Under the pieces are notes generated by a model. The model was not told the DNA's origin. It made no database searches and saw only the letters and a program-made list of their open reading frames with translations. The position numbers and the translations under genes were made by a program. Positions 22,501-35,181 of a stretch of DNA of 64,000 nucleotides are shown here, piece after piece. Source of the stretch: Blastocatellia bacterium. GTDB lineage: Bacteria > Acidobacteriota > Blastocatellia > UBA7656. Numbering within the stretch: the stretch's first letter is position 1; every line of letters begins with the position of its first letter. Location: positions 320,001 to 384,000 of the forward strand of contig CAVXWP010000001.1 of the NCBI GenBank assembly GCA_963765495.1, given 5' to 3'.

Positions 22501-24252
22501 ATGAAGCAAAAGATCACGATCAGACAAGCCCTCGATGAGGTAGTCAGTAAAATGAGCGCCGTCATGTCGCGCGAAGAGATCGTGTCAGCCGTTCTGGAAC
22601 GTTTTCACTCAAAGGCCAAAAAACCCGCCACTTCTATAATGGAACAGGTCAGATGTCACCCTGATCTTGTGGCGCTCGGGGATGGGCATTATGCGCGAGC
22701 CGATTATGTGCTCGAGGGCGCGAAATTTCGGATCAAACCGGGCAATGATGAGATCGCCGCAGGCATTGTGAATCGCTCGTGGTTTCATCCGTTCGATAAG
22801 GTTATGCCCACGCACGCGAGCATATTCGCGCTCAAAGACGGGAGAGATATTCCCATGACGACCAGAGTGGTCGGGGTCGAGGAGCTTACCGATGAGCAAC
22901 TCAAATCCATGCTCGTCAATCTTGCGGAAAGGTTCCTGGGAGGGGTGGATACGGATGCGCTTGCCGCTCTAAACATATTTCAGGACGACGATCCTGATAC
23001 GGACGAACTTGCTCTGGCAGAACTGTTTTCGCTCGAAGCAGACGACGAGGAATTTGCCGACGAGATGGATGGGGAACTTGCAGAGAAGGAACTGCTTGAT
23101 CAAGCCAGGCAACTGATCAAGGCGCAGGGCGGGCAAGAGATCAAAGGACACAATTTCGAGCCTTTTTTCAAAGAGAATAAAGTGAAGGAAGGCGATTCGC
23201 TCATCGTTACCATCAGCCCTAAAACAAACACCTATATCTTCGAATACGAACCTGCGAGCGAGACTCAACGGCTCATAATCAGGCATCACGACCACGAGAT
23301 CAGCGAGTTTATACACCAGGCAATCAAGCGCGATATGCGTGTCGAGGCGCGTGATCTGATTTTTCAAGCCTACGGCAAATTCGTCTGGCTCAAGCAGTAC
23401 CCTTCAAATCACTGGCGCGAAATTGTCGAAAATGACGACCAGCTTCGTTTGATCACTATATTCGGCGATTACATCGAAATCGCCTCCATCGACTTTCACA
23501 TGATGCTCGATAGCCTGGGCATGGATGAGGTAACCCGGAAGAAACAGCACAAACGGTCGAAGATCATCCAGGAGGAGATCGACAGTTTCTGCGACAGGTT
23601 TGAAGAAGCTTCCAGCGCCGCCTGCGCAGATCTGACTACGGTCATTGATGCAGGCGGATTGGCAAATGTCATCCGTCCTGACCGGCGTCTTTGTGCGCCC
23701 GATGTTTTGCAGGAAGAGAGCGAAACAGATACGGGCGGGGACGGTAACGGCCATTTCGGACCCTTGCGAGTGGTAAAGGATTCAGAGGCCGTGCCGATAA
23801 TGGTTTATGACGAATGTGATTATCAGGCCATCAGCGAACACGATGAAAAGTTGATAGAGCAGTTCTTTGCGGGGATGGGGAAAAAGAGAACCGCCACCGC
23901 TCAGGCTGAAAAGAAAGCAGGCGATGTGGCTTTGTTTGCCGATTTCCTGGCCAGCTATCAGGACCGCGCTCTGGAGTATGCAGATTATGACTGTCTCGAA
24001 GAGTTCTTCTTCATGTGGTATCCGCGAAAGGTGCTAAACTCGTCGCCCGCCCACATCAGGCAAATGTTTACGAACCTGCGCGAGTTTTATCAGTTTCTCG
24101 TAAAAGCGAACTATATTCGAAGCGCCAAATTTGCCGAGGCAATTTTCAACTTGCGAGAGCTGGCCGCCGAAAAGGTCAAATTGTATGACCGGCTGCCGTA
24201 CGGAAACGATTACCACCCGCTGTTTGAAAAGCTTTTTGGCCTGGACTGGTAA
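22501..24252 (+). CDS. Hypothetical acidic protein; possible N-terminal HTH and C-terminal integrase core-binding (SAM)-like domain
   Basis: 583-aa ORF; C-terminus ...LFADFL...LEEFF..W.PRK..SSPAHIRQMFTNLREFYQFL...YI resembles a tyrosine-recombinase N-domain. Confidence 0.7.
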   Translation: MKQKITIRQALDEVVSKMSAVMSREEIVSAVLERFHSKAKKPATSIMEQVRCHPDLVALGDGHYARADYVLEGAKFRIKPGNDEIAAGIVNRSWFHPFDKVMPTHASIFALKDGRDIPMTTRVVGVEELTDEQLKSMLVNLAERFLGGVDTDALAALNIFQDDDPDTDELALAELFSLEADDEEFADEMDGELAEKELLDQARQLIKAQGGQEIKGHNFEPFFKENKVKEGDSLIVTISPKTNTYIFEYEPASETQRLIIRHHDHEISEFIHQAIKRDMRVEARDLIFQAYGKFVWLKQYPSNHWREIVENDDQLRLITIFGDYIEIASIDFHMMLDSLGMDEVTRKKQHKRSKIIQEEIDSFCDRFEEASSAACADLTTVIDAGGLANVIRPDRRLCAPDVLQEESETDTGGDGNGHFGPLRVVKDSEAVPIMVYDECDYQAISEHDEKLIEQFFAGMGKKRTATAQAEKKAGDVALFADFLASYQDRALEYADYDCLEEFFFMWYPRKVLNSSPAHIRQMFTNLREFYQFLVKANYIRSAKFAEAIFNLRELAAEKVKLYDRLPYGNDYHPLFEKLFGLDW

Positions 24253-24388: not shown

Positions 24389-25147
24389 ATGGAATATATA
24401 AAGCGCGAAATCGAGGACGGCTTGTTGATTATGACCATGTCCAGAAGCAGGGCCAATGCCTTGAATCGTGATATGGTCGAACAAATGTGCTCGGTACTTG
24501 ATGAAGCGGCTGCGGATGAAAAAATTCGCGCGCTTGTTATTGCAAGCGACCAGCCGAGGTTTTTTTCTGCCGGGTTCGATCTGAAGGAGGTCTTTGATTA
24601 TGACCGGGCTCAGATGACGGAATTCTTTGGCCGCTTTATTGACCTGTACCAGGGACTCAACCATCTGCCGCTGCCTGTGGTGGCTGCCGTCTCGGGCCAC
24701 GCCTTCGCGGGCGGTGCGGTGCTTGCGCTCGCCGCCGATGTCCGCATCCTGGCCGATGGTGATTATGGTTTCGCCTTAAATGAAATCAAGCTGGGGCTTG
24801 TGCTGCCGCCCCGCATGATGAGTATGCTGCTTAATGCGACGGGGCCGGGACCGGCGCGCTGGATTCTTCTCTCAGGCGATGCGCTCTCGCCCTCAGAGGC
24901 GCTCTCCACAAGAGTAGCAAACGAACTTGCCCCGCCCGACTCCGTGCTTGAACGCGCAAAAGCAACGGCCCGACTGCTTTCGGAAAGACCCCCCTCGGCC
25001 TTCGCCGCCTTCAAGCAGGCCCTCGCAGGTGCCGCCGGTCACGCCGAACTTGACGACCATCGCTACCTGTCGGAGTTCATTGACAGATGGTTTTCCGATG
25101 AGGCCGAAGAACGCAAACGCGCCACTGCCGAAACCCTCAAAAGATGA
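24389..25147 (+). CDS. Enoyl-CoA hydratase/isomerase (crotonase family)
   Basis: FFSAGFDL, AVSGHAFAGG and LNEIKLG motifs; RBS GGAGG. Confidence 0.92.
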   Translation: MEYIKREIEDGLLIMTMSRSRANALNRDMVEQMCSVLDEAAADEKIRALVIASDQPRFFSAGFDLKEVFDYDRAQMTEFFGRFIDLYQGLNHLPLPVVAAVSGHAFAGGAVLALAADVRILADGDYGFALNEIKLGLVLPPRMMSMLLNATGPGPARWILLSGDALSPSEALSTRVANELAPPDSVLERAKATARLLSERPPSAFAAFKQALAGAAGHAELDDHRYLSEFIDRWFSDEAEERKRATAETLKR

Positions 25148-25274
25148 AACCCTCAAAGACATCTCCGCGTCGTTTTTGAGCCGCTTCCTGCCCCGTATTT
25201 TGCGTGATTTGAGCATAGGTGAAGTCCAACTCATATTTTTGAGTAAAAACATGTAGAGATATTCAAGAAATGGC

Positions 25275-25303
25275 TTGACACCAAAAGCGAGTTTCCATAG
25301 CAT
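25275..25303 (+). promoter_or_regulatory. Sigma70-type promoter for the monooxygenase array
   Basis: TTGACA-N17-TAGCAT, 59 nt upstream of ATG 25362. Confidence 0.65.
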
Positions 25304-25361
25304 GAGAGGGCTCAAAAATTCAGTTTTTGCGATGTATTCACTCAACCGGCAAGGAGACAGC

Positions 25362-26834
25362 ATGACCTCGAAGAAGTTCCCCCTTTCACTGCTCATAGTT
25401 TTCGGCCTTTTCATAGGCGGGGTCTTCGGCACAAGCAGCGCGGACTCTAAAAAAGCGGACTCTAAAAAAGAAGTGACATTCAGCAAAGATGTTGCGCCGA
25501 TCTTCTTCAGCAACTGCGTGCAGTGTCACAAGGCCAAAGATATAGCGCCGATGTCTCTGGTAACTTATAAAGAAGCGCGTCCGTGGGCGCGTTCGATAAA
25601 AGAGAAAGTCGTGACGCGCGAGATGCCGCCCTGGCACGCCGACCCGCATTACGGTCAGTTCAGCAACGCGCACGTGCTGACCGAAAAAGAGATTGACACG
25701 ATTGCCACCTGGGTAGATCAGGGAGCGAAAGAGGGCAATCCGAAAGACCTCCCGCCCGTGCCCGATTTCGTCAAGGGCGGATGGGAGATTGGAAAGCCCG
25801 ACGTAGTGTTCTCCATGCAGGAAGAGTACACGGTTGAAGTAGACGCGCCCGACAACTACATCAACTTCTTTATCCCTACCAACTTCAAAGAAGACAGATG
25901 GATTCAGGCGGCAGAGATTCATCCGGGCAACAAGACGGTTGTCCATCACGTGATTGCCTTTATACAGACGCCCGAAAAAATGGCCCGGATGAAGGAGCGC
26001 GAGAAAAATGGAGAGACCCGGCGCGAAGAGCAGTCGGGCATCTTTTACAAAGACGGCACGCTCCAGCGCGTCAAGATGGACGCGCCCGTGATTGATGATC
26101 TGTGCAGTTACAAGCCGCCCGAGGGGCAGCAGCGCCGCCGTCGCTCAAATGATGAAGACGGGGCCGATGCCTTTGGCTCTCTGCTTGCGGGTTACGCGCC
26201 GGGCAAAGAGGTTGATCGCTGGCCCGCCGGTATGGCCAAAAAGGTTCCCGCAGGCTCTATCATCATGTTTCAGGTACACTACTCGAACGTATTCAAAGGC
26301 GTCGAGAGCAAGCCGGTCAAGGACCGCACAAGCATAGGGCTCGTCTTTGCGAAAGAGCCGCCAAAGAAAGCCATCGTGACCTTAGGCGTTTCAAACGTGA
26401 TGTTCAAGATACCGTCTGAGGCTGAAAATCATGAGGTCACGGCTTGCTTCACGTTCCCGCGCGATGTCGAGATCATAGATTACATGCCGCACATGCATCT
26501 GCGCGGCAAGGACATGCGCTATGATGTGGTCTATCCCGACGGCAAGACCGACACCTTGCTCTGGGTTCCAAATTTCAACTTCAACTGGCAGACCATGTAT
26601 TTGCCTGCCAGGCCGGTTGCTATTCCGAAGGGAACAAAGCTGATAGTGACCGCTCATTTCAACAACTCGAAGACGAACAGATGGAATCCCGATCCGACGA
26701 AGCCTGTCAGGTGGGGCGATCCTACCTATGACGAGATGATGATTGGCTGGCTCGATTTCGTCGTAGACAATCCGGCGAAACAGGACATGCCAAATCCGCC
26801 GGCTGCGCAGGCTTCTCAGACCGGAAAGCGTTAG
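25362..26834 (+). CDS. Secreted cytochrome c + PHM/DBH-type copper monooxygenase, paralogue 1
   Basis: Signal peptide; CVQCH, MPPW; VVHH, QVHY, PHMH and DEMM copper-ligand motifs; RBS AAGGAG. Confidence 0.8.
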   Translation: MTSKKFPLSLLIVFGLFIGGVFGTSSADSKKADSKKEVTFSKDVAPIFFSNCVQCHKAKDIAPMSLVTYKEARPWARSIKEKVVTREMPPWHADPHYGQFSNAHVLTEKEIDTIATWVDQGAKEGNPKDLPPVPDFVKGGWEIGKPDVVFSMQEEYTVEVDAPDNYINFFIPTNFKEDRWIQAAEIHPGNKTVVHHVIAFIQTPEKMARMKEREKNGETRREEQSGIFYKDGTLQRVKMDAPVIDDLCSYKPPEGQQRRRRSNDEDGADAFGSLLAGYAPGKEVDRWPAGMAKKVPAGSIIMFQVHYSNVFKGVESKPVKDRTSIGLVFAKEPPKKAIVTLGVSNVMFKIPSEAENHEVTACFTFPRDVEIIDYMPHMHLRGKDMRYDVVYPDGKTDTLLWVPNFNFNWQTMYLPARPVAIPKGTKLIVTAHFNNSKTNRWNPDPTKPVRWGDPTYDEMMIGWLDFVVDNPAKQDMPNPPAAQASQTGKR

Positions 26835-26847
26835 AGCGACTTCCAGC

Positions 26848-26898
26848 AAATGTAGGGGCAGTCACAATAAATGTACTCATTCGAGCTGCCCTGCATTT
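26848..26898. repeat. Degenerate GTAG-REP hairpin
   Basis: aaatgtaggggcag...ctgccctgcattt; resembles the 16041 element. Confidence 0.5.
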
Positions 26899-27013
26899 AA
26901 TCTGAATTCGATCATATCGCTACGCGCAAAACCACAGTGGAACCGACCGGACGCGCCTTATTTCAAAGGCTGCGGCCGAACTATCTTTCTCTCCAATCAG
27001 GAGGTGCTTCATC

Positions 27014-28453
27014 GTGAGGAAAAAGCTCGTTGCTTCATTAGCCGCAAGTCTACTTTTAGCGGTTTGCTTTATCGCCCTGCCCGCAAGCCAGGCAAACGAT
27101 GCGAAGAAGGGCGCGAAGTCGGCCGTGACTTTTAATAAAGACGTGGCCCCGATACTCTACAAAGACTGCGCGCAGTGCCATCGGCCCAACGACATAGCTC
27201 CGATGTCGCTGTTGAGCTACAAGGAAGCGCGCCCGTGGGCACGCTCCATCAAAGAGAAGGTCGTAACGCGCCAGATGCCTCCCTGGGACGCGGACCCGAA
27301 ATACGGCGAGTTCTCAAATGTTCATCGGCTCTCGGACCGCGACATTGACACTATATCTCGTTGGGTGGATCAGGGAGCGATAGAGGGCAACCCGAAAGAC
27401 CTCCCGCCCGTGCCCGATTTTGTTGAAGGCGGTTGGGAAATAGGCAAACCCGATGTTGTGCTCTCCATGCAGGAAGAGTACACGGTCGAGGTTGACGCGC
27501 CCGACAACTATATCAACTTCACCATCCCCACAAACTTCAAAGAAGACAAATGGATTCAGGCGGCAGAGATTCATCCGGGCAACAAGACGGTCGTCCATCA
27601 CGTGATCGCCTTTATTATGACGCCTGAGACAAAGGCAAGAATCGGAGCGGCCCTCAAGAAGAACGGGATATTCGGTCGCCCGAAACAGAACCCCGACTCT
27701 ATCTTTTATAAAGACGGCACGCTGCGGCGGGTCAAGATGGATGCGCCCGTCTATGACGACGGATGCTCGGTTGAGGAAGGAGTGCGCTCGGGCACGAGCG
27801 ACGGCAACCGGCTCGGCGCATTGCTTGCCGGATACGCTCCGGGCAAGGGCGTTGATCTGTGGCCCGCAGGGACGGCCAAAAAGGTTCCCGCCGGTTCCGA
27901 CATCGTATTTCAGATGCACTACTCAAACGTATTCAACGGTGTAGCCGAAAAGGCCGTAAAGGACCGCACAAGCATAGGGCTGATCTTTGCCAAAAAGCCG
28001 CCCGAGAAAGAGATCATCACCTACGCGATCTCGAACCACTCTTTCAAGATTCCGGCAGGCGAAGGGGATCACGAAGTCACGGCCTGTCAGACTCTCAAGA
28101 TGGACGCCGAGATTCTGAATTACATGCCGCACATGCACCTGCGCGGCAAAGACATGCGCTACGACGTGGTCTATCCCGACGGCAAAACGGACACGCTGCT
28201 CTGGGTCCCGAAGTTCAACTTCAACTGGCAGACGACCTATTATGTGAAGAAGCCCATAACCATACCAAAAGGAACGAAATTTATAATAACGGCTCACTTC
28301 GACAACTCGACCAAGAACAAGTATAATCCTGATCCCAAGAAAGATGTGCGATGGGGCGATCCCACCTATGACGAGATGATGATAGGCTGGATGGATCTGC
28401 TCATACCGAATCGCGACAAACAGGAGACCGCTGCGAAGGCTGGCGGTAAATAG
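27014..28453 (+). CDS. Secreted cytochrome c + PHM-type copper monooxygenase, paralogue 2
   Basis: GTG start with GGAGG RBS; CAQCH, VVHH, QMHY, PHMH and DEMM motifs. Confidence 0.8.
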   Translation: MRKKLVASLAASLLLAVCFIALPASQANDAKKGAKSAVTFNKDVAPILYKDCAQCHRPNDIAPMSLLSYKEARPWARSIKEKVVTRQMPPWDADPKYGEFSNVHRLSDRDIDTISRWVDQGAIEGNPKDLPPVPDFVEGGWEIGKPDVVLSMQEEYTVEVDAPDNYINFTIPTNFKEDKWIQAAEIHPGNKTVVHHVIAFIMTPETKARIGAALKKNGIFGRPKQNPDSIFYKDGTLRRVKMDAPVYDDGCSVEEGVRSGTSDGNRLGALLAGYAPGKGVDLWPAGTAKKVPAGSDIVFQMHYSNVFNGVAEKAVKDRTSIGLIFAKKPPEKEIITYAISNHSFKIPAGEGDHEVTACQTLKMDAEILNYMPHMHLRGKDMRYDVVYPDGKTDTLLWVPKFNFNWQTTYYVKKPITIPKGTKFIITAHFDNSTKNKYNPDPKKDVRWGDPTYDEMMIGWMDLLIPNRDKQETAAKAGGK

Positions 28454-28503
28454 CTCGAAGCCGAATCCGCAGTCGGCCGTGAGCCGACAGGGAGGCACTG
28501 ATT

Positions 28504-29748
28504 ATGAGGAGACCGCTTAGCGTTTTAGCAGCCGTCGTTTTCCTTGGGGCAGTCTGTTTTATCGCGCAGCCTGTGGGCCGCACGGATGATGCGAAAAAAG
28601 AGGAGAAGCCCCTCGTCACATTCAGCAAAGATGTCGCGCCGATATTTTTCAAGAACTGTGTGCAATGCCACCGTCCCGGAGAGATCGCGCCGATGTCGCT
28701 GTTGAGCTACAAGGAGGCCCGCCCGTGGGCGCGCTCGATAAAAGAGAAAGTCGTTACGGGCGATATGCCGCCGTGGCACGCCGACCCGCATTACGGCGAA
28801 TTTGTAAACGACCGCAGGCTCAGCCAGAAAGATGTTGAAACTATTTCGCAATGGGTCGAGCAGGGGGCAGTAGAAGGCAATCCGAAAGACATGCCTGCCG
28901 CGCCCGTCTTTCTCGACGGATGGAACATCGGCAAACCCGACGCGATCTTCTATCTGCCCGAAGAGTTCGCCGTGCCGAGCGAAGGCGAAGTGCCTTACAA
29001 ATACTTCAATGTGCCCACGAATTTCAAAGAAGACATGTGGGTGCAGGCGGCAGAGATTCGACCGGGCGAGCGTTCGGTCGTTCACCACATAATAGTATTT
29101 TCTCAAAAAGGGACCGAGCGAAAACTGCTTGCGGGGTATGCGCCCGGCGAGCAGCCCGCGATCATTCCAAAAGGGTTGGGCCGCAAGATACCTGCCGGGG
29201 CTACTCTCACCTTTCAGGTGCATTACACGCCAAACGGCAAAGCGACAAAAGACCGTTCGTATATCGGTTTGATCTTTGCCAAAGAGACGCCGAAGCACGA
29301 CATAATGACGCGCCCGATCATGAACGGGAAATTTGTGATTCCGCCGGGCAATCCGAGCTATAAGGTCGAATCGACTTACACCTTCAAGGAAGATGTGCAT
29401 ATCGTATCGCTTATGCCTCACATGCATTATCGAGGCAAAGACTTTGAGTATCGCATCACCTATCCCGACGGCAAATCCGAGGTGATTTTGTCGGTGCCGA
29501 AATATGATTTCGGCTGGCAGAGTTATTATCTGTTGAAGCAATCATTAGCCGCGCCCAAGGGCACGCGCATCGATTGCCTGGCGCATTTCGATAATTCGGC
29601 CAGAAACCGCTACAACCCCGACCCGACAAAAGAGGTCCGCTGGGGCGATCAAACATGGGAAGAGATGATGATCGGCTGGATCAGTTTCACTCGCGATAAC
29701 GAAGAGGAAAAGCAGTCGGATGTGGCTACGGCCGGGCAAAGTCAATAG
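28504..29748 (+). CDS. Secreted cytochrome c + PHM-type copper monooxygenase, paralogue 3
   Basis: CVQCH, VVHH, QVHY, PHMH and EEMM motifs. Confidence 0.8.
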   Translation: MRRPLSVLAAVVFLGAVCFIAQPVGRTDDAKKEEKPLVTFSKDVAPIFFKNCVQCHRPGEIAPMSLLSYKEARPWARSIKEKVVTGDMPPWHADPHYGEFVNDRRLSQKDVETISQWVEQGAVEGNPKDMPAAPVFLDGWNIGKPDAIFYLPEEFAVPSEGEVPYKYFNVPTNFKEDMWVQAAEIRPGERSVVHHIIVFSQKGTERKLLAGYAPGEQPAIIPKGLGRKIPAGATLTFQVHYTPNGKATKDRSYIGLIFAKETPKHDIMTRPIMNGKFVIPPGNPSYKVESTYTFKEDVHIVSLMPHMHYRGKDFEYRITYPDGKSEVILSVPKYDFGWQSYYLLKQSLAAPKGTRIDCLAHFDNSARNRYNPDPTKEVRWGDQTWEEMMIGWISFTRDNEEEKQSDVATAGQSQ

Positions 29749-29772
29749 AAGTATTCAGCCGATGAAATGACT

Positions 29773-29824
29773 AACTTAAAAGGGCCGATCCATCTCACGC
29801 AGATTGGGGAGGCCCTTTTAAGTT
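29773..29824. terminator. Stem-loop between paralogues 3 and 4
   Basis: aacttaaaagggcc ... ggcccttttaagtt, perfect 14-bp inverted repeat. Confidence 0.55.
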
Positions 29825-29865
29825 CAACAGACACGCAAAAGAGTATCTGTTCAGAAAGGAAAAAT

Positions 29866-29925
29866 GCCACAGAGACACAAAGGCACAGAGTTATTTTAAT
29901 AATCTTTTCTCTATGCCTCTGTGGC
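29866..29925. repeat. Palindromic element with 8-nt CACAGAG units, copy 2
   Basis: gccacagagacacaaaggcacagag...ctctatgcctctgtggc. Confidence 0.75.
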
Positions 29926-29961
29926 TAATGCTGAACCCTTTTGCAAAAGGAGAGATAAGGA

Positions 29962-31197
29962 ATGCGACATGCAAAAGCAAAAAGGCAGAGTTACAAATGG
30001 ATGTTTCTTGTATTGTTACTTTTGCCTTTTGCTCTCGTGCTGTGGCCGAACGCCTCAAGCGCGCACGAACCTATCACTACAAAGATATTGTTCAACAAGG
30101 ATGTAGTTCGCATATTCAAGCGAAATTGTCTGGGCTGCCATCATCCGGGAGGAATAGCGCCGTGGTCGCTTGTGACCTATGAAGAGGCCCGACCGTGGGC
30201 CAAGGCCATCAAGGAAGAGTTGCTCGAACAGCGCATGCCGCCCTGGCATCTGATGAAGGGCTACGGCGATTTCAGCAATGCTCCGGCGCTTACACAACGC
30301 GACATTGACATGATAGTGAACTGGGTAGAAGGGGGCGCGCCTCCCGGTAAACTGGAACTCCTGCCGAAAGAGCCTCTGGTTTCGACCGACTGGCAACTGG
30401 GCGAGCCTGATCTAGTATTAAAGGCCGAAGCCGCGCACAAAGTGGCATCAGACGCCGATGAATATTGCGACATCGACTTGCAGGCGAAATTGACCGAAGA
30501 CCGATGGGTCACGGCCGTTGATGTGCAACCGGGCAACGGGTCGGTCGTTCACTGCGCTACGATTTATGTCGAGCCTGAGAAAGGGCCGCGTTATACGCTT
30601 GGCACGTGGATGCCCGGTCAAAGGACCGTTCGATTGCCCGAAGGCACGGCTCAATTAATCCCGTCTGGTGCGCGCGTCAATCTTAAAGTTCACTATCACG
30701 GAGCGGGCGAAGATACCGAAGACCTGAGCGCGGTCGGGCTGTACTTTGCCGATTCGCAGGTTCAAAAGCAGACGCGCGAGGTTGAGGTCACAAACTCGAA
30801 CGCAGTGATACCAACAGGTTCGACGCCGCAGCGCGTCAAGGCCGAATACACCCTGGAAGACGCGGCAGAAGCTGTAGCGGTAAGACCCTCGGTTAATCCG
30901 CTTGTGATTTCGCTTCAGGCCACCGCGTACCGGCCCGACGGCACCGAAGAAGTGCTTGTGTGGACACGCGGCTATAAATTCGACTGGCAACCGACATATA
31001 TCTATAAGCAACCTGTCGCTCTGCCCAAAGGCACTAGAATCGAAGTGATAGCCTATTTCGACAACTCCGAAACGAACAGCAACAACCCGAACACGCCGCC
31101 GAAAGAAGTGCGATGGTCCGAAGTCTCTTCGCAATCGCTCTGCGCGGTCCTGGTCGCAACCAACCTCAACAATAAAGACGTGGCAGGCCGCAGATAA
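29962..31197 (+). CDS. Cytochrome c + PHM-like protein, paralogue 4 (copper ligands degenerate)
   Basis: CLGCH and MPPW kept; VVHC replaces HH, PSVN replaces PHMH, and EM(M) is absent. Confidence 0.75.
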   Translation: MRHAKAKRQSYKWMFLVLLLLPFALVLWPNASSAHEPITTKILFNKDVVRIFKRNCLGCHHPGGIAPWSLVTYEEARPWAKAIKEELLEQRMPPWHLMKGYGDFSNAPALTQRDIDMIVNWVEGGAPPGKLELLPKEPLVSTDWQLGEPDLVLKAEAAHKVASDADEYCDIDLQAKLTEDRWVTAVDVQPGNGSVVHCATIYVEPEKGPRYTLGTWMPGQRTVRLPEGTAQLIPSGARVNLKVHYHGAGEDTEDLSAVGLYFADSQVQKQTREVEVTNSNAVIPTGSTPQRVKAEYTLEDAAEAVAVRPSVNPLVISLQATAYRPDGTEEVLVWTRGYKFDWQPTYIYKQPVALPKGTRIEVIAYFDNSETNSNNPNTPPKEVRWSEVSSQSLCAVLVATNLNNKDVAGRR

Positions 31198-31235
31198 TAA
31201 TCTCGCCGGGCAGGCGAGCAAGAGCGCGGCTTCTG

Positions 31236-31772
31236 TCACGTCTGCTCGGGCTCTGCGCGTTTGTCCGCGTATCGTCTTATAAAAAAGACCGTCAAAAAGA
31301 TCGGGCCGAATATCAGCAATTCATAGAAGCTGATTCTGAAGGCTCTTTTTATCTCGTCGGCGAGCGGCTGGAGATTTGAGCCGGGGAAGAATTCGAAGTA
31401 CTCTATCAGCCCGAGTTTGAAGTCGTGCGTAGAGAAAGGCCACAGCAACATGACTCCGCCCCATGTCTTGCTCGTGGCTGCATCAAGCAATGCGTGCAAG
31501 AAAGTGGCCGATCCAAAGACCACGATTTCTCTGAGGTGAAACCTGCCCATGACGGCGGCGGCCAGAAAGCCTGCGGCTACGGCAAAGGTGATTGAATGAG
31601 AGAAACTGCCGTGCCAGCCTACGCCGAAACCGAGCACCCATCGAAAGAACAGATCGAAGTCGGGGCAGATGCCTATGAAAGCCCCCATCAAAAGAGCTTT
31701 CCAATCGGGGTTGCGCGATGAAGAAGCTACGACGCTTGCCCCCATAAATCCGTGCGCTACGGGAAGTGGCAT
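31236..31772 (-). CDS. Membrane metal-dependent hydrolase (YdjM-like)
   Basis: MPLPVAH, PDFD, HGSFSHS, HALLD and LLWPF motifs; true start 31772. Confidence 0.85.
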   Translation of the reverse strand: MPLPVAHGFMGASVVASSSRNPDWKALLMGAFIGICPDFDLFFRWVLGFGVGWHGSFSHSITFAVAAGFLAAAVMGRFHLREIVVFGSATFLHALLDAATSKTWGGVMLLWPFSTHDFKLGLIEYFEFFPGSNLQPLADEIKRAFRISFYELLIFGPIFLTVFFIRRYADKRAEPEQT

Positions 31773-32406: not shown

Positions 32407-35181
32407 TCACGCCGTATGCGAGATCGATTGCTCTGAGCCGAGCGCTGCCTGCGCTGCCGCGAGCCTCGCGATTGGCACGCGATAAGGCGAGCAGGAAACA
32501 TAGCTCAATCCCACCCGGTCGCAGAAGCCCACCGACGAAGGCTCACCGCCGTGCTCGCCGCAGATTCCTACCTTCAAATCCTTGCGCGTTGATCGCCCTT
32601 TTTCGGTTCCCATCTTTACAAGCTGGCCTACGCCCTCCTGATCGAGTACCTGGAACGGATCGTTTTTGAAGATGCGGTTCTCGACATAAAACGGCAGGAA
32701 TTTGCCCGAATCGTCACGCGATATGCCGTAGGTGGTCTGAGTCAGATCGTTTGTCCCAAACGAGAAGAACTCTGCTACTTCGGCTATTTTATCGGCGGTA
32801 AGGGCCGCACGCGGAAGCTCTATCATAGTGCCTACGAGATACTCGATATGCTGTTTGCTCTTTGCCATCACTTCACCGGCGACGCGGCGAACCACATCGG
32901 TCTGAAGTCGCAGTTCGATCACATCCGAGACGAGCGGGATCATGATTTCAGGCAGGACTTTCACGCCGCGAGCCTGCACACGGGCCGCCGCCTCGAATAT
33001 CGCGCGCGCCTGCATCTCGGTTATTTCAGGATAGACGACGCCCAGCCGACAGCCGCGATGGCCGAGCATAGGGTTGGCTTCGTGCAACGCCTGAATTCGT
33101 TCCCAGAGGTGCGCGGGCTTGACCCTGAGCTTGCGCGCGAGCTTGCGCGTCCCCTCTTCGTCGTGGGGCAGAAATTCGTGCAGAGGCGGATCGAGCGTGC
33201 GAATTGTGACCGGCAGTCCGTCCATTGCGCGGAAGATGCCCTCGAAATCCTTTCGCTGAAGCTTGAGCAATTCGGCAAGACCGCCTTTATACAATCGCCT
33301 TGGCTCTTCGATGGCTTTCTTGATTTTCTTGCGCCGCCTCTTAAATTCTTCGAGTTTCTTTGGCGAAGAGGCCCGGCTTATCTCTGCGTCGGCCACCGCG
33401 AGGTCGCGTTCGAGTCGCTTGTATTCGAGCGAGCCGAGTATCATCTGGCGCACATAATCTATGCGGTTTCCCTCGAAAAACATGTGCTCGGTGCGGCAAA
33501 GCCCGATGCCTTCGGCTCCAAACTCGCGCGCTACCTTTGCATCGCCCGGTGTGTCTGCGTTTGTGCGCACGCGCATACGGCGATGCTTGTCGGCCCACTC
33601 CATCAACTGATGGAAATCGTCTCCAAGCTTGGGATCGATGAGCGGGGCCTGACCTTCGATCACGCGACCCGAGGTTCCGTCTATCGTTATCCAATCGCCC
33701 TGTTTGACGCGGGTGCCGTTTACGGCAAATTCGTTTTTGGCATAATGGATCGAGATTTCGCCCGCGCCGACTATGCAGGGTTTGCCCCATCCTCGCGCCA
33801 CGACAGCAGCGTGACTGGTCGGGCCGCCCGTGGATGTGAGTATCGCCTGCGCCGCGTCCATGCCGCGCACATCTTCGGGCGAAGTCTCGTGACGGACGAG
33901 GATTACCGGTTCGCCTTTTGCGGCCCATTCTTCGGCTTCCTTCGGAGTAAACACTACGCGGCCCACGGCAGCGCCGGGGCTTGCGTTTATGCCCTGAGTC
34001 AGGACTTTGACCGCGCCTTTCGGGTCTATCATCTTGTGAAGCAGTTGATCGAGATCGCCCGCAGGTACTCTGAGCACGGCCGTCGGTTCGTCTATCAATC
34101 CTTCGCGGGCCATATCGACCGCGACCTTTACGGCGGCAGGCCCTGTGCGCTTGCCGTTTCTCGTCTGGAGCATCCAGAGCTTGCCACGCTCGATTGTGAA
34201 CTCCAAATCCTGCATGTCGCGATAGTGGCGTTCGAGCTTGTTGGCTACTTCGACAAACTCGTTATAGATTTCGGGCATGTCGTTCTTTAGCTCATCAATG
34301 TGCTTGGGCGTGCGGATGCCCGCTACCACGTCTTCGCCCTGAGCGTTGGTCAGATAATCGCCGAAAAGCTGTTTCTCGCCCGTAGCCGGGTTGCGCGTAA
34401 AAGCTACGCCCGTGCCGCTGTCGTTTCCCATATTGCCGAAGACCATGGTGACTACGTTGACAGCCGTTCCCAGATCATCGGGTATCTTTTCTCTGCGGCG
34501 ATATGCTATAGCGCGGTCGCCGTTCCAGGACCGAAAGACCGCCTTGACCGACTCTTCAAGCTGACGGAGAGGATCGGTAGGGAACTCCGCGCCGGTCTCG
34601 CGCCGAACTATGGCTTTGAAATCTTCCGAGACCTTTTTGAGGTGTTCTGCCGTCAGATCGGTGTCGAGCTTTGCCTTTGCCTTTCGCTTGGTCTCGCTGA
34701 GAGAGTGCTCGAACAACTCTGCGTCTATGCCGAGCACTATCTTGCCGAACATCTGTATAAAACGGCGGTAGGCGTCGTATGCGAACCGCTCGTTTGATGT
34801 GAGCGCGGCCAGACCCTTCAGGGTTTCGTCGTTGAGGCCGAGGTTCAGCACAGTATCCATCATCCCGGGCATCGAGAATTTCGCGCCTGACCTCACAGAG
34901 ACAAGCAGGGGGTTCGAGGGGTCGCCGAATTTCTTGCCCGTGGCGCGTTCTACTTTTGCGAGCGCCTTCAGGGACTGGTCCCACATCCCCTCGGGAAACT
35001 GCGCGCCCACCTCATAGTAGGCATTGCAAGCCTCGGTAGTAATCGTAAAACCTGGGGGCACGGGCAGACCCGCATTGGTCATTTCGGCAAGCCCCGCGCC
35101 CTTCCCGCCGAGCAAATCTTTCATGTCGCCGCGCCCGTCGGCCTTGCCGTTTGCAAACAGATAAACATATTTCTTTGCCAT
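32407..35181 (-). CDS. ppdK: Pyruvate, phosphate dikinase
   Basis: LLGGKGAGLAEM, SVRSGA, TSHAAVVARG, GLCRTEHMF, FSFGTNDLTQ and GICGEHGG motifs. Confidence 0.97.
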   Translation of the reverse strand: MAKKYVYLFANGKADGRGDMKDLLGGKGAGLAEMTNAGLPVPPGFTITTEACNAYYEVGAQFPEGMWDQSLKALAKVERATGKKFGDPSNPLLVSVRSGAKFSMPGMMDTVLNLGLNDETLKGLAALTSNERFAYDAYRRFIQMFGKIVLGIDAELFEHSLSETKRKAKAKLDTDLTAEHLKKVSEDFKAIVRRETGAEFPTDPLRQLEESVKAVFRSWNGDRAIAYRRREKIPDDLGTAVNVVTMVFGNMGNDSGTGVAFTRNPATGEKQLFGDYLTNAQGEDVVAGIRTPKHIDELKNDMPEIYNEFVEVANKLERHYRDMQDLEFTIERGKLWMLQTRNGKRTGPAAVKVAVDMAREGLIDEPTAVLRVPAGDLDQLLHKMIDPKGAVKVLTQGINASPGAAVGRVVFTPKEAEEWAAKGEPVILVRHETSPEDVRGMDAAQAILTSTGGPTSHAAVVARGWGKPCIVGAGEISIHYAKNEFAVNGTRVKQGDWITIDGTSGRVIEGQAPLIDPKLGDDFHQLMEWADKHRRMRVRTNADTPGDAKVAREFGAEGIGLCRTEHMFFEGNRIDYVRQMILGSLEYKRLERDLAVADAEISRASSPKKLEEFKRRRKKIKKAIEEPRRLYKGGLAELLKLQRKDFEGIFRAMDGLPVTIRTLDPPLHEFLPHDEEGTRKLARKLRVKPAHLWERIQALHEANPMLGHRGCRLGVVYPEITEMQARAIFEAAARVQARGVKVLPEIMIPLVSDVIELRLQTDVVRRVAGEVMAKSKQHIEYLVGTMIELPRAALTADKIAEVAEFFSFGTNDLTQTTYGISRDDSGKFLPFYVENRIFKNDPFQVLDQEGVGQLVKMGTEKGRSTRKDLKVGICGEHGGEPSSVGFCDRVGLSYVSCSPYRVPIARLAAAQAALGSEQSISHTA

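Follow-up and report, generated by a model that had tools for sequence, protein, structure and literature searches.

Four genes joining a haem domain to a PHM-like core

In animals, the catalytic core shared by peptidylglycine alpha-hydroxylating monooxygenase (PHM) and dopamine beta-hydroxylase (DBH) serves the synthesis of hormones and noradrenaline, and to our knowledge enzymes of this type have been studied only in eukaryotes. A gene array in a Blastocatellia bacterium (assembly GCA_963765495.1, contig CAVXWP010000001.1) raises the question of whether bacteria also make such proteins, there fused to a c-type cytochrome domain, and what they would use them for. The window analyzed is the 64,000-nucleotide stretch from position 320,001 to 384,000 of this contig, and coordinates below are those of the window. 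A first-pass annotation, made from the letters alone, had described the array as four secreted, haem c-fused copper monooxygenases. The analysis presented here supports homology of the first three products (g1 to g3) to PHM and DBH, identifies the fourth (g4) as a paralogue that has lost the copper ligands and is maintained by selection, and places the array within an old Blastocatellia gene order. We consider it probable that g1-g3 are exported, haem-fed two-copper oxygenases of the PHM type, accompanied by g4 as a non-catalytic haem partner.

The four open reading frames (ORFs) are all co-oriented on the + strand, as first described, and are separated, in order, by 179, 50 and 213 bases. Their products share 69% (g2), 53% (g3) and 35% (g4) identity with g1. 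The features on which the argument depends are the following.

25362-26834 (+): g1, 490 aa, predicted exported monohaem cytochrome c with a PHM/DBH-type core, long-insert type
g1 motifs (+): CVQCH 25515-25529; MPPW 25623-25634; VVHH 25938-25949; QVHY 26271-26282; PHMH 26487-26498; DEMM 26730-26741
27014-28453 (+): g2, 479 aa, GTG start, architecture as g1, long-insert type
g2 motifs (+): CAQCH 27167-27181; MPPW 27275-27286; VVHH 27590-27601; QMHY 27911-27922; PHMH 28127-28138; DEMM 28370-28381
28504-29748 (+): g3, 414 aa, short type
28615-28878 (+): g3 predicted haem domain, about residues 38-125
28933-29712 (+): g3 PHM-like core, residues 144-403
g3 motifs (+): CVQCH 28657-28671; MPPW 28765-28776; VVHH 29077-29088 (H194, H195); QVHY 29215-29226 (H240)
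g3 motifs on the putative CuM side (+): PHMH 29416-29427 (H306, H308); EEMM 29659-29670 (M388)
29962-31197 (+): g4, 411 aa, paralogue without the copper ligands, haem site retained
g4 motifs (+): CLGCH 30127-30141; MPPW 30235-30246; HEPITT 30064-30081
g4 former copper positions (+): VVHC 30544-30555; KVHY 30685-30696; PSVN 30886-30897; SQSL 31129-31140

The CxxCH and MPPW motifs are present in all four products, and the HH...H and HxH...M series noted previously in the first three were found as VVHH, Q(V/M)HY, PHMH and (D/E)EMM. A hydrophobic N-terminus, judged by eye, is found in each of g1-g4, in agreement with the signal peptides proposed for them. The array had been taken to begin at 25275, the TTG that opens the longest ORF of g1; this codon constitutes the first bases of a TTGACA hexamer and is an unlikely start, the most likely one being the ATG at 25362, which has AGGAG just upstream.

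The copper-site histidines of g1-g3 align with those of PHM and DBH

To find out whether the ligand order of g1-g3 reflects homology, profiles were built from 38 close homologues (A2), from 54 more diverse members (A3) and from 60 sequences restricted to the C-terminal domain (A7). Searched against the PDB, A2 retrieved PHM chains (E 8e-4), aligning svvHHiivf with dtVHHMLLF, fqvHYtp with LQVHYGD, and lmPHmHlrgk with YRVHTHHLGK, and A3 retrieved human DBH (E 7e-9, the best sequence-profile match) with the same three motifs aligned, the first two reading LVHHM and EVHY in DBH. Five of the six copper ligands, that is all five histidines, are thus placed by the family profiles on ligand histidines of PHM and DBH, namely the three of CuH and both of CuM. 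The CuH motifs VVHH and Q(V/M)HY fall on VHHM and QVHY of PHM. Among 68 long distant homologues, all ten ligand positions (four for haem, six for copper) are invariant, as is the Glu preceding the Met (68/68), a conservation well beyond that expected by chance. The overall identity of the family to PHM is 14-19%.

At the level of domain databases, the Pfam model Cu2_monoox_C (PF03712, cut-off 23) scored 24.4 bits for g2, 21.1 for g1 and 19.9 for g3, gave no match with g4, and was matched at E <= 1e-3 by 22 of the 68 distant homologues. NCBIfam holds no model for the family, every match being far below its cut-off.

The comparison with the PHM core by AlphaFold and Foldseek that the first-pass annotation had proposed was carried out on g3. 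The AlphaFold2 model (mean pLDDT 82.8) ranked PHM (E 9e-14) and DBH first in Foldseek, and VIA-align superposed its residues 144-403 on residues 61-328 of PHM (PDB 6ALA) with a Z score of 21.6 and a root-mean-square deviation (rmsd) of 2.5 A over 244 residues. Superposition on DBH gave a Z score of 21.1 over 258 residues, whereas the next fold, PNGase F, reached only 9.1. Pfam and profile matches together with this predicted fold support the view that the ligand order first noticed in g1-g3 is homologous to that of PHM and DBH, and not a chance likeness.

The CuM assignment is putative. In the alignments PHMH falls on the HTH of PHM and DBH, and the Met is placed indirectly, on the basis of three observations: the Glu-Met pair is invariant in 68/68 distant members, and the Met in 60/60; the Met lies within the Pfam C-domain match; and it precedes the end of the structural alignment by 15-16 residues, compared to 14-15 residues between M314 and the end of PHM.

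With regard to the haem domain, the C, C, H and M of its motif are invariant in the family, the g3 model shows helices at residues 40-53, 69-85 and 108-119, and the genome encodes cytochrome c assembly genes (PF01578). Matches to known families were weak: Pfam Cytochrome_CBB3 scored 15-20 bits, below its cut-off of 27, and profile matches in the PDB were to 4rlr (E 0.004) and the haem domain of hydrazine synthase (E 0.001). From its motifs, CxxCH is likely the haem attachment site and the Met of MPPW the axial ligand.

g4 is a maintained paralogue without the copper ligands

Four copper monooxygenases had been counted in the array. However, g4 retains 2 of the 6 copper ligand positions (VVHC, KVHY, PSVN and SQSL in place of the motifs of g1-g3), so that neither the CuH nor the CuM motif is present and, by its sequence, g4 is not a copper enzyme of the PHM type. 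Its model retains the PHM fold, superposing on PHM with a Z score of 20.9 and an rmsd of 2.8 A over 244 residues, with a core pLDDT around 90. The possibility that g4 is a pseudogene was rejected: the ORF is intact in all 20 full-length genes of its clade, and pairwise ratios of nonsynonymous to synonymous substitution (dN/dS) were 0.09-0.19 for g4-type genes versus 0.07-0.13 for g3, values that are rough because dS is saturated (1.5-3.6). The g4 clade is maintained under purifying selection and is not a decaying copy.

A second feature of g4-type proteins is found at their N-terminus. In g4, His35 directly follows the predicted signal-peptidase site (..ASSA|HEPITT, read by eye), so that the mature protein would begin with His if cleavage occurs there. 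The residues ahead of HEP are small in g4-type proteins (SSA|HEP, GSA|HEP, AFA|HEP), H35, P37, T39 and T40 are invariant in 19/19 aligned sequences, and the motif H[ED]P[IV]T was present in all 24 g4-type proteins whose N-terminus lies on the contig and in none of 143 intact family members; the region itself is modeled with pLDDT below 50. Copper proteins of the histidine-brace type use their N-terminal His as a metal ligand, and in cytochrome f the N-terminal amino group ligates the haem. By analogy, one may speculate that the N-terminal His of g4 would fit an accessory role in copper or electron handling. Co-folding of g3 (residues 33-402) with g4 (residues 35-402) gave a score of 0.00 in two runs made with no controls, which is evidence neither for nor against an interaction.

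The array is an old gene order of Blastocatellia

To establish the history of the array, 77 loci from species-representative genomes were collected with the A2 profile, 48 of them holding one family member and 29 holding two to eight. The ten ligand columns were read in the 171 members obtained from these loci and from the genome of the window, and 143 members, classed as intact, carried the full set CCHM-HHH-HHM. Every multi-gene array of the window type has a last gene that keeps CCHM and has lost most copper ligands, with remnants such as HCH-SNL, RSH-LNL or HSR-LF-. Apart from these, in one otherwise intact member (L044:9986-11248) the third CuH His is replaced by Arg (HHR-HHM).

A FastTree phylogeny of the 158 members of at least 390 aa recovered a g4 clade of 20 rows, g4 included, with support 100, and a g3 clade of 24 rows with support 89, composed of sub-clades with supports of 100 and 99. 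Products g1 and g2 are mutual nearest rows with modest support (83) and fall within the long-insert clade, which comprises 61 rows and has support 94. The long basal branches of this tree (two contig-7 copies, own_C7a and own_C7b, and the g4 clade) may attract one another. Gene order agreed with these clades. In 24 of 24 cases the g3-clade gene was followed by another family gene, which belonged to the g4 clade in 20 and in the other 4 was cut or fragmented, too short for the tree, and bore the g4 motif. Upstream, a long-insert gene preceded the g3-clade gene in all 22 cases with upstream sequence available. The array is therefore an old Blastocatellia gene order (long-insert, g3-type, g4-type) whose genes occupy orthologous positions. 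The expansion proposed earlier is not supported in the sense of a local event, and a recent expansion of the whole array was rejected by the tree and the gene order, only g1 and g2 being nearest to each other.

Three contigs among the loci (L015, L047 and L048) are labelled "uncultured Clostridia" or "Heliobacteriaceae". Their members nest in Blastocatellia clades, and these labels of metagenome-assembled genomes look wrong; L015 is syntenic with the window.

A very large family

The genome of the window (7.3 Mb, 17 contigs, 98% complete) encodes eight family copies, four in the array and four on contigs 7, 9 and 14, all intact except g4. In a collection of 5.8 billion proteins, all 8,000 candidates scored were significant, most of them from Blastocatellia and other Acidobacteriota, and when 1.84 billion cluster representatives (50% identity) were searched exhaustively, 18,502 family clusters were obtained at E <= 1e-3, 11,826 at 1e-10 and 3,629 at 1e-30. 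Among sampled Acidobacteriota genomes, with 6 candidates scored per genome, a family match at E <= 1e-20 was found in 69 of 301 (a tally that takes in one genome flagged unpublished, G024) and in 60 of the 275 of high quality; within Blastocatellia, one family had no genome with a match (0/16). Some genomes of the phylum, such as G044, gave up to 71 candidates at first look, which suggests paralogue sets far above eight. Among the sequencing runs listed there was no RNA run, and a single soil-metagenome DNA run contained 0.67 of the sampled words.

The labels attached to these proteins in the source databases are "cytochrome c", "mono/diheme cytochrome c family protein", "thiol-disulfide isomerase" and "hypothetical", and the ESM Atlas gave no clusters other than those named "Cytochrome c domain-containing protein" or "hypothetical protein". 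In the full-text literature, from which subscription journals were outside coverage, we found no published study of a haem c-PHM fusion, in agreement with the first-pass annotation, to which no characterized system with this layout was known. The passages seen of a 2025 review on PHM do not mention bacterial homologues (PMC12164859).

What is new here is the fixed order of long-insert, g3-type and g4-type genes, the monophyly and selective maintenance of the copper-less clade, and the N-terminal His motif of the latter.

Proposed function and alternatives

If g1-g3 are exported haem-fed oxygenases, as we think probable, electrons from the periplasmic respiratory pool would reduce their haem, which would take the place of ascorbate and pass them to CuH (H194, H195 and H240 in g3). 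The putative CuM site (H306, H308 and M388) would bind O2 and hydroxylate a C-H bond of an extracytoplasmic substrate, presumably other than a glycine-extended peptide. As g4 always follows a g3-type gene, we read it as a partner of the neighboring enzymes, which would keep the haem and the PHM fold and act in redox or metal handling without catalysis of its own.

Several observations weigh against this proposal. The Met ligand lies outside every sequence alignment (A2 and A3 end before it, and A7 missed PHM); Pfam scores are marginal, with only g2 above the PF03712 cut-off and the N-domain model PF01082 reaching 13.8 bits in g3 versus 30; in the g4 model the haem part has low confidence (pLDDT below 55); and saturation leaves the evidence for selection on g4 rough. 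The array is not flanked by any gene for a copper chaperone, an electron donor or a substrate-related function, and the flanks of such arrays differ between genomes, the dikinase gene described below being a neighbor in 5 loci of close relatives. Finally, an N-terminal AhpC-TSA/redoxin domain was found in 63 of the 84 long homologues (representatives of more than 520 aa among the best 150; 13/16 and 50/68 in its two subsets), which could point to thiol or peroxide chemistry instead of C-H hydroxylation.

This fusion suggests an alternative in which the electrons passed from haem to copper would reduce O2 or H2O2 with no hydroxylation of an organic substrate, serving to detoxify oxygen or peroxide in the periplasm or as an electron sink. 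The array, with no substrate-related neighbor, would suit such a role, and PHM itself can use H2O2. On the other hand, the redoxin domain is absent from the window copies and from all eight copies in the genome, the many diverged paralogues (eight here, arrays of up to 6 elsewhere) suit substrate diversity better, and a His-His-Met CuM site is the hallmark of substrate hydroxylases. We regard this alternative as rather unlikely.

Peptide alpha-amidation, which the first-pass annotation had suggested as a possible function, would have g1-g3 act like PHM, hydroxylating secreted peptides at their C-terminal glycine, and the shared fold and copper ligand set are compatible with it. However, the Arg located two residues before HxH in PHM (YRVHTH), which we take to be R240, the anchor of the peptide carboxylate, is a Met in the family (lmPHmH), and after the Met ligand the family reads M-I-G-W where PHM has C-N-L-Y, presumably including its substrate-binding Asn and Tyr. 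The survey of neighborhoods proposed along with this function gave no PAL-like gene among the neighbors of the array and no RiPP enzymes (those acting on ribosomally made peptides that undergo post-translational modification) in the 77 loci. Candidate precursor ORFs of at least 20 aa overlapping the 179- and 213-base gaps look like chance occurrences, their conservation not having been checked. With the anchoring Arg replaced and neither a lyase nor a convincing precursor at the array, we consider amidation very improbable.

A third alternative arises from the surroundings of single-copy members in other clades, including that of the contig-14 copy, where a recurring cluster of neighbors was detected. 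A Tat-signal Amidohydro_2 protein occurs in 19 of the 77 loci, and of 139 family genes 13 have it directly downstream. It is accompanied by glyoxalase/VOC proteins (12 loci), a 323-aa protein (9), multihaem cytochromes (6) and pyrroloquinoline quinone (PQQ) dehydrogenases (5). The Amidohydro_2 neighbor has no PDB relative at E <= 0.01; its Tat signal indicates an exported context for these members, which counts in favor of the oxygenase proposal. In the genome of the window the cluster lies on contig 14 (90699-96683), where the family copy adjoins a protein of the 323-aa type, a CocE/NonD hydrolase and Amidohydro_2. Two further examples of the cluster are the following.

L036:5182-12398: recurring neighbor cluster
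L049:9905-18802: recurring neighbor cluster

Such a cluster may represent a periplasmic catabolic pathway, and the context of these clades points to extracytoplasmic catabolism, although it names no substrate. The multihaem cytochromes and PQQ dehydrogenases in it, together with the constant presence of the haem-only paralogue in the arrays, could instead be taken as signs of an electron-transfer relay in an extracytoplasmic respiratory chain, or of a dehydrogenase in which the substrate is oxidized at copper and electrons leave through the haem. Against this, the His3/His2Met pair shows exactly the same conservation as in enzymes that activate O2, neither type of neighbor is found at the window array, and we know of no PHM-fold protein that works in this manner. 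A relay or dehydrogenase thus appears distinctly improbable, and oxygenase activity of g1-g3 remains our preferred interpretation.

Comparison with known systems

PHM (the PAM core; PDB 1PHM, 1SDW and 6ALA) shares with the family two beta-sandwich domains and the aligned HH..H and HxH motifs, and the invariant Glu-Met pair of the family stands at the presumed place of its Met ligand. It differs in that the family is bacterial, with Sec-type export and a fused monohaem cytochrome c, whereas PHM is ascorbate-dependent, and in that the family has Met for the peptide-anchoring Arg and no PAL partner. DBH and tyramine beta-monooxygenase (PDB 4ZEL) gave the best profile match and resemble the family in the five aligned ligand histidines and the high structural score, but DBH has a DOMON and a dimerization domain and uses ascorbate, whereas the extra domain of the family is a c-type cytochrome; nothing points to a phenylethylamine as substrate of the family.

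The cytochrome domain of cellobiose dehydrogenase (CDH) together with LPMO offers a purely functional analogy, in that a haem domain gives single electrons to an extracellular mononuclear copper oxygenase, many paralogues are found per genome, and g4-type proteins have a predicted N-terminal His as LPMOs do. The folds are unrelated, the single copper of LPMO is held in a histidine brace versus the two PHM-type sites of the family, and the haem of CDH is of type b and on a separate protein. In a histidine brace, the mature N-terminal His and another His hold copper in a T-shaped arrangement. When compared with proteins of this kind (LPMO, CopC and PmoB types), g4-type proteins show only the first half, an invariant His after the predicted cleavage site, and the g4 fold is not that of LPMO. 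A link of the family to polysaccharides is limited to sporadic fusions with CBM48/AMPK1_CBM domains (3/84 long homologues), other sporadic fusions involving EF-hand, esterase, GDSL, PQQ propeller, TPR and ankyrin domains.

This analogy invites a bolder interpretation in which the array would be an extracellular oxidative machine, its diverged haem-fed two-copper oxygenases attacking different C-H bonds of recalcitrant soil organic matter and the g4-type product, as a new kind of accessory protein with a PHM fold that has shed both copper sites and an N-terminal His as metal site or haem ligand, delivering copper or electrons to them. We hold so specific a scheme to be quite unlikely.

The family also includes the redoxin-cytochrome c-PHM-like fusions annotated as "thiol-disulfide isomerase", which share the cytochrome and copper core and the ten invariant ligand positions plus Glu; unlike them, the eight copies in the genome of the window lack the N-terminal AhpC-TSA/redoxin domain.

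In PHM and DBH, which depend on ascorbate, there is still debate on how electrons travel the approximately 11 A from one copper to the other. A bacterial counterpart whose haem donor is covalently attached and can be followed by spectroscopy would provide a self-contained system to study this transfer. If our interpretation is true, soil bacteria would also hold in this family a large and unexplored stock of copper enzymes that activate oxygen. The strict pairing with a copper-less haem paralogue provides a testable clue to how enzymes of the g1-g3 type are serviced in the periplasm.

Transcription signals and flanking genes

A single promoter upstream of g1 had been proposed for the array. 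The sequence pattern exists, and a second one of this kind was found inside g2.

25275-25303 (+): promoter-like TTGACA-N17-TAGCAT upstream of g1, 10/12 positions, pattern only
28299-28327 (+): promoter-like TCGACA-17-TATAAT within g2 near its 3' end, 177 bases ahead of g3, 11/12 positions, pattern only

The number of promoter-like sites in positions 25000-31500 was at chance level (3, versus 4.0 +/- 2.4 in shuffled sequences), as was that of terminator-like sites in the region (8 versus 8.4). Because of this, and because the site inside g2 outscores that upstream of g1, a single promoter is unsupported.

Upstream of the array are found an enoyl-CoA hydratase gene and an ORF of 583 aa (22501-24252, +) with no Pfam or NCBIfam match. 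Downstream, on the opposite strand, are genes encoding YdjM, a CxxCxxCC protein and pyruvate phosphate dikinase (32407-35181, -). In one of the collected loci, from a related genome (L022:15396-19421, -), the dikinase is 1341 aa long and contains intein and LAGLIDADG homing-endonuclease domains, neither of which is present in the 924-aa orthologue of the window.

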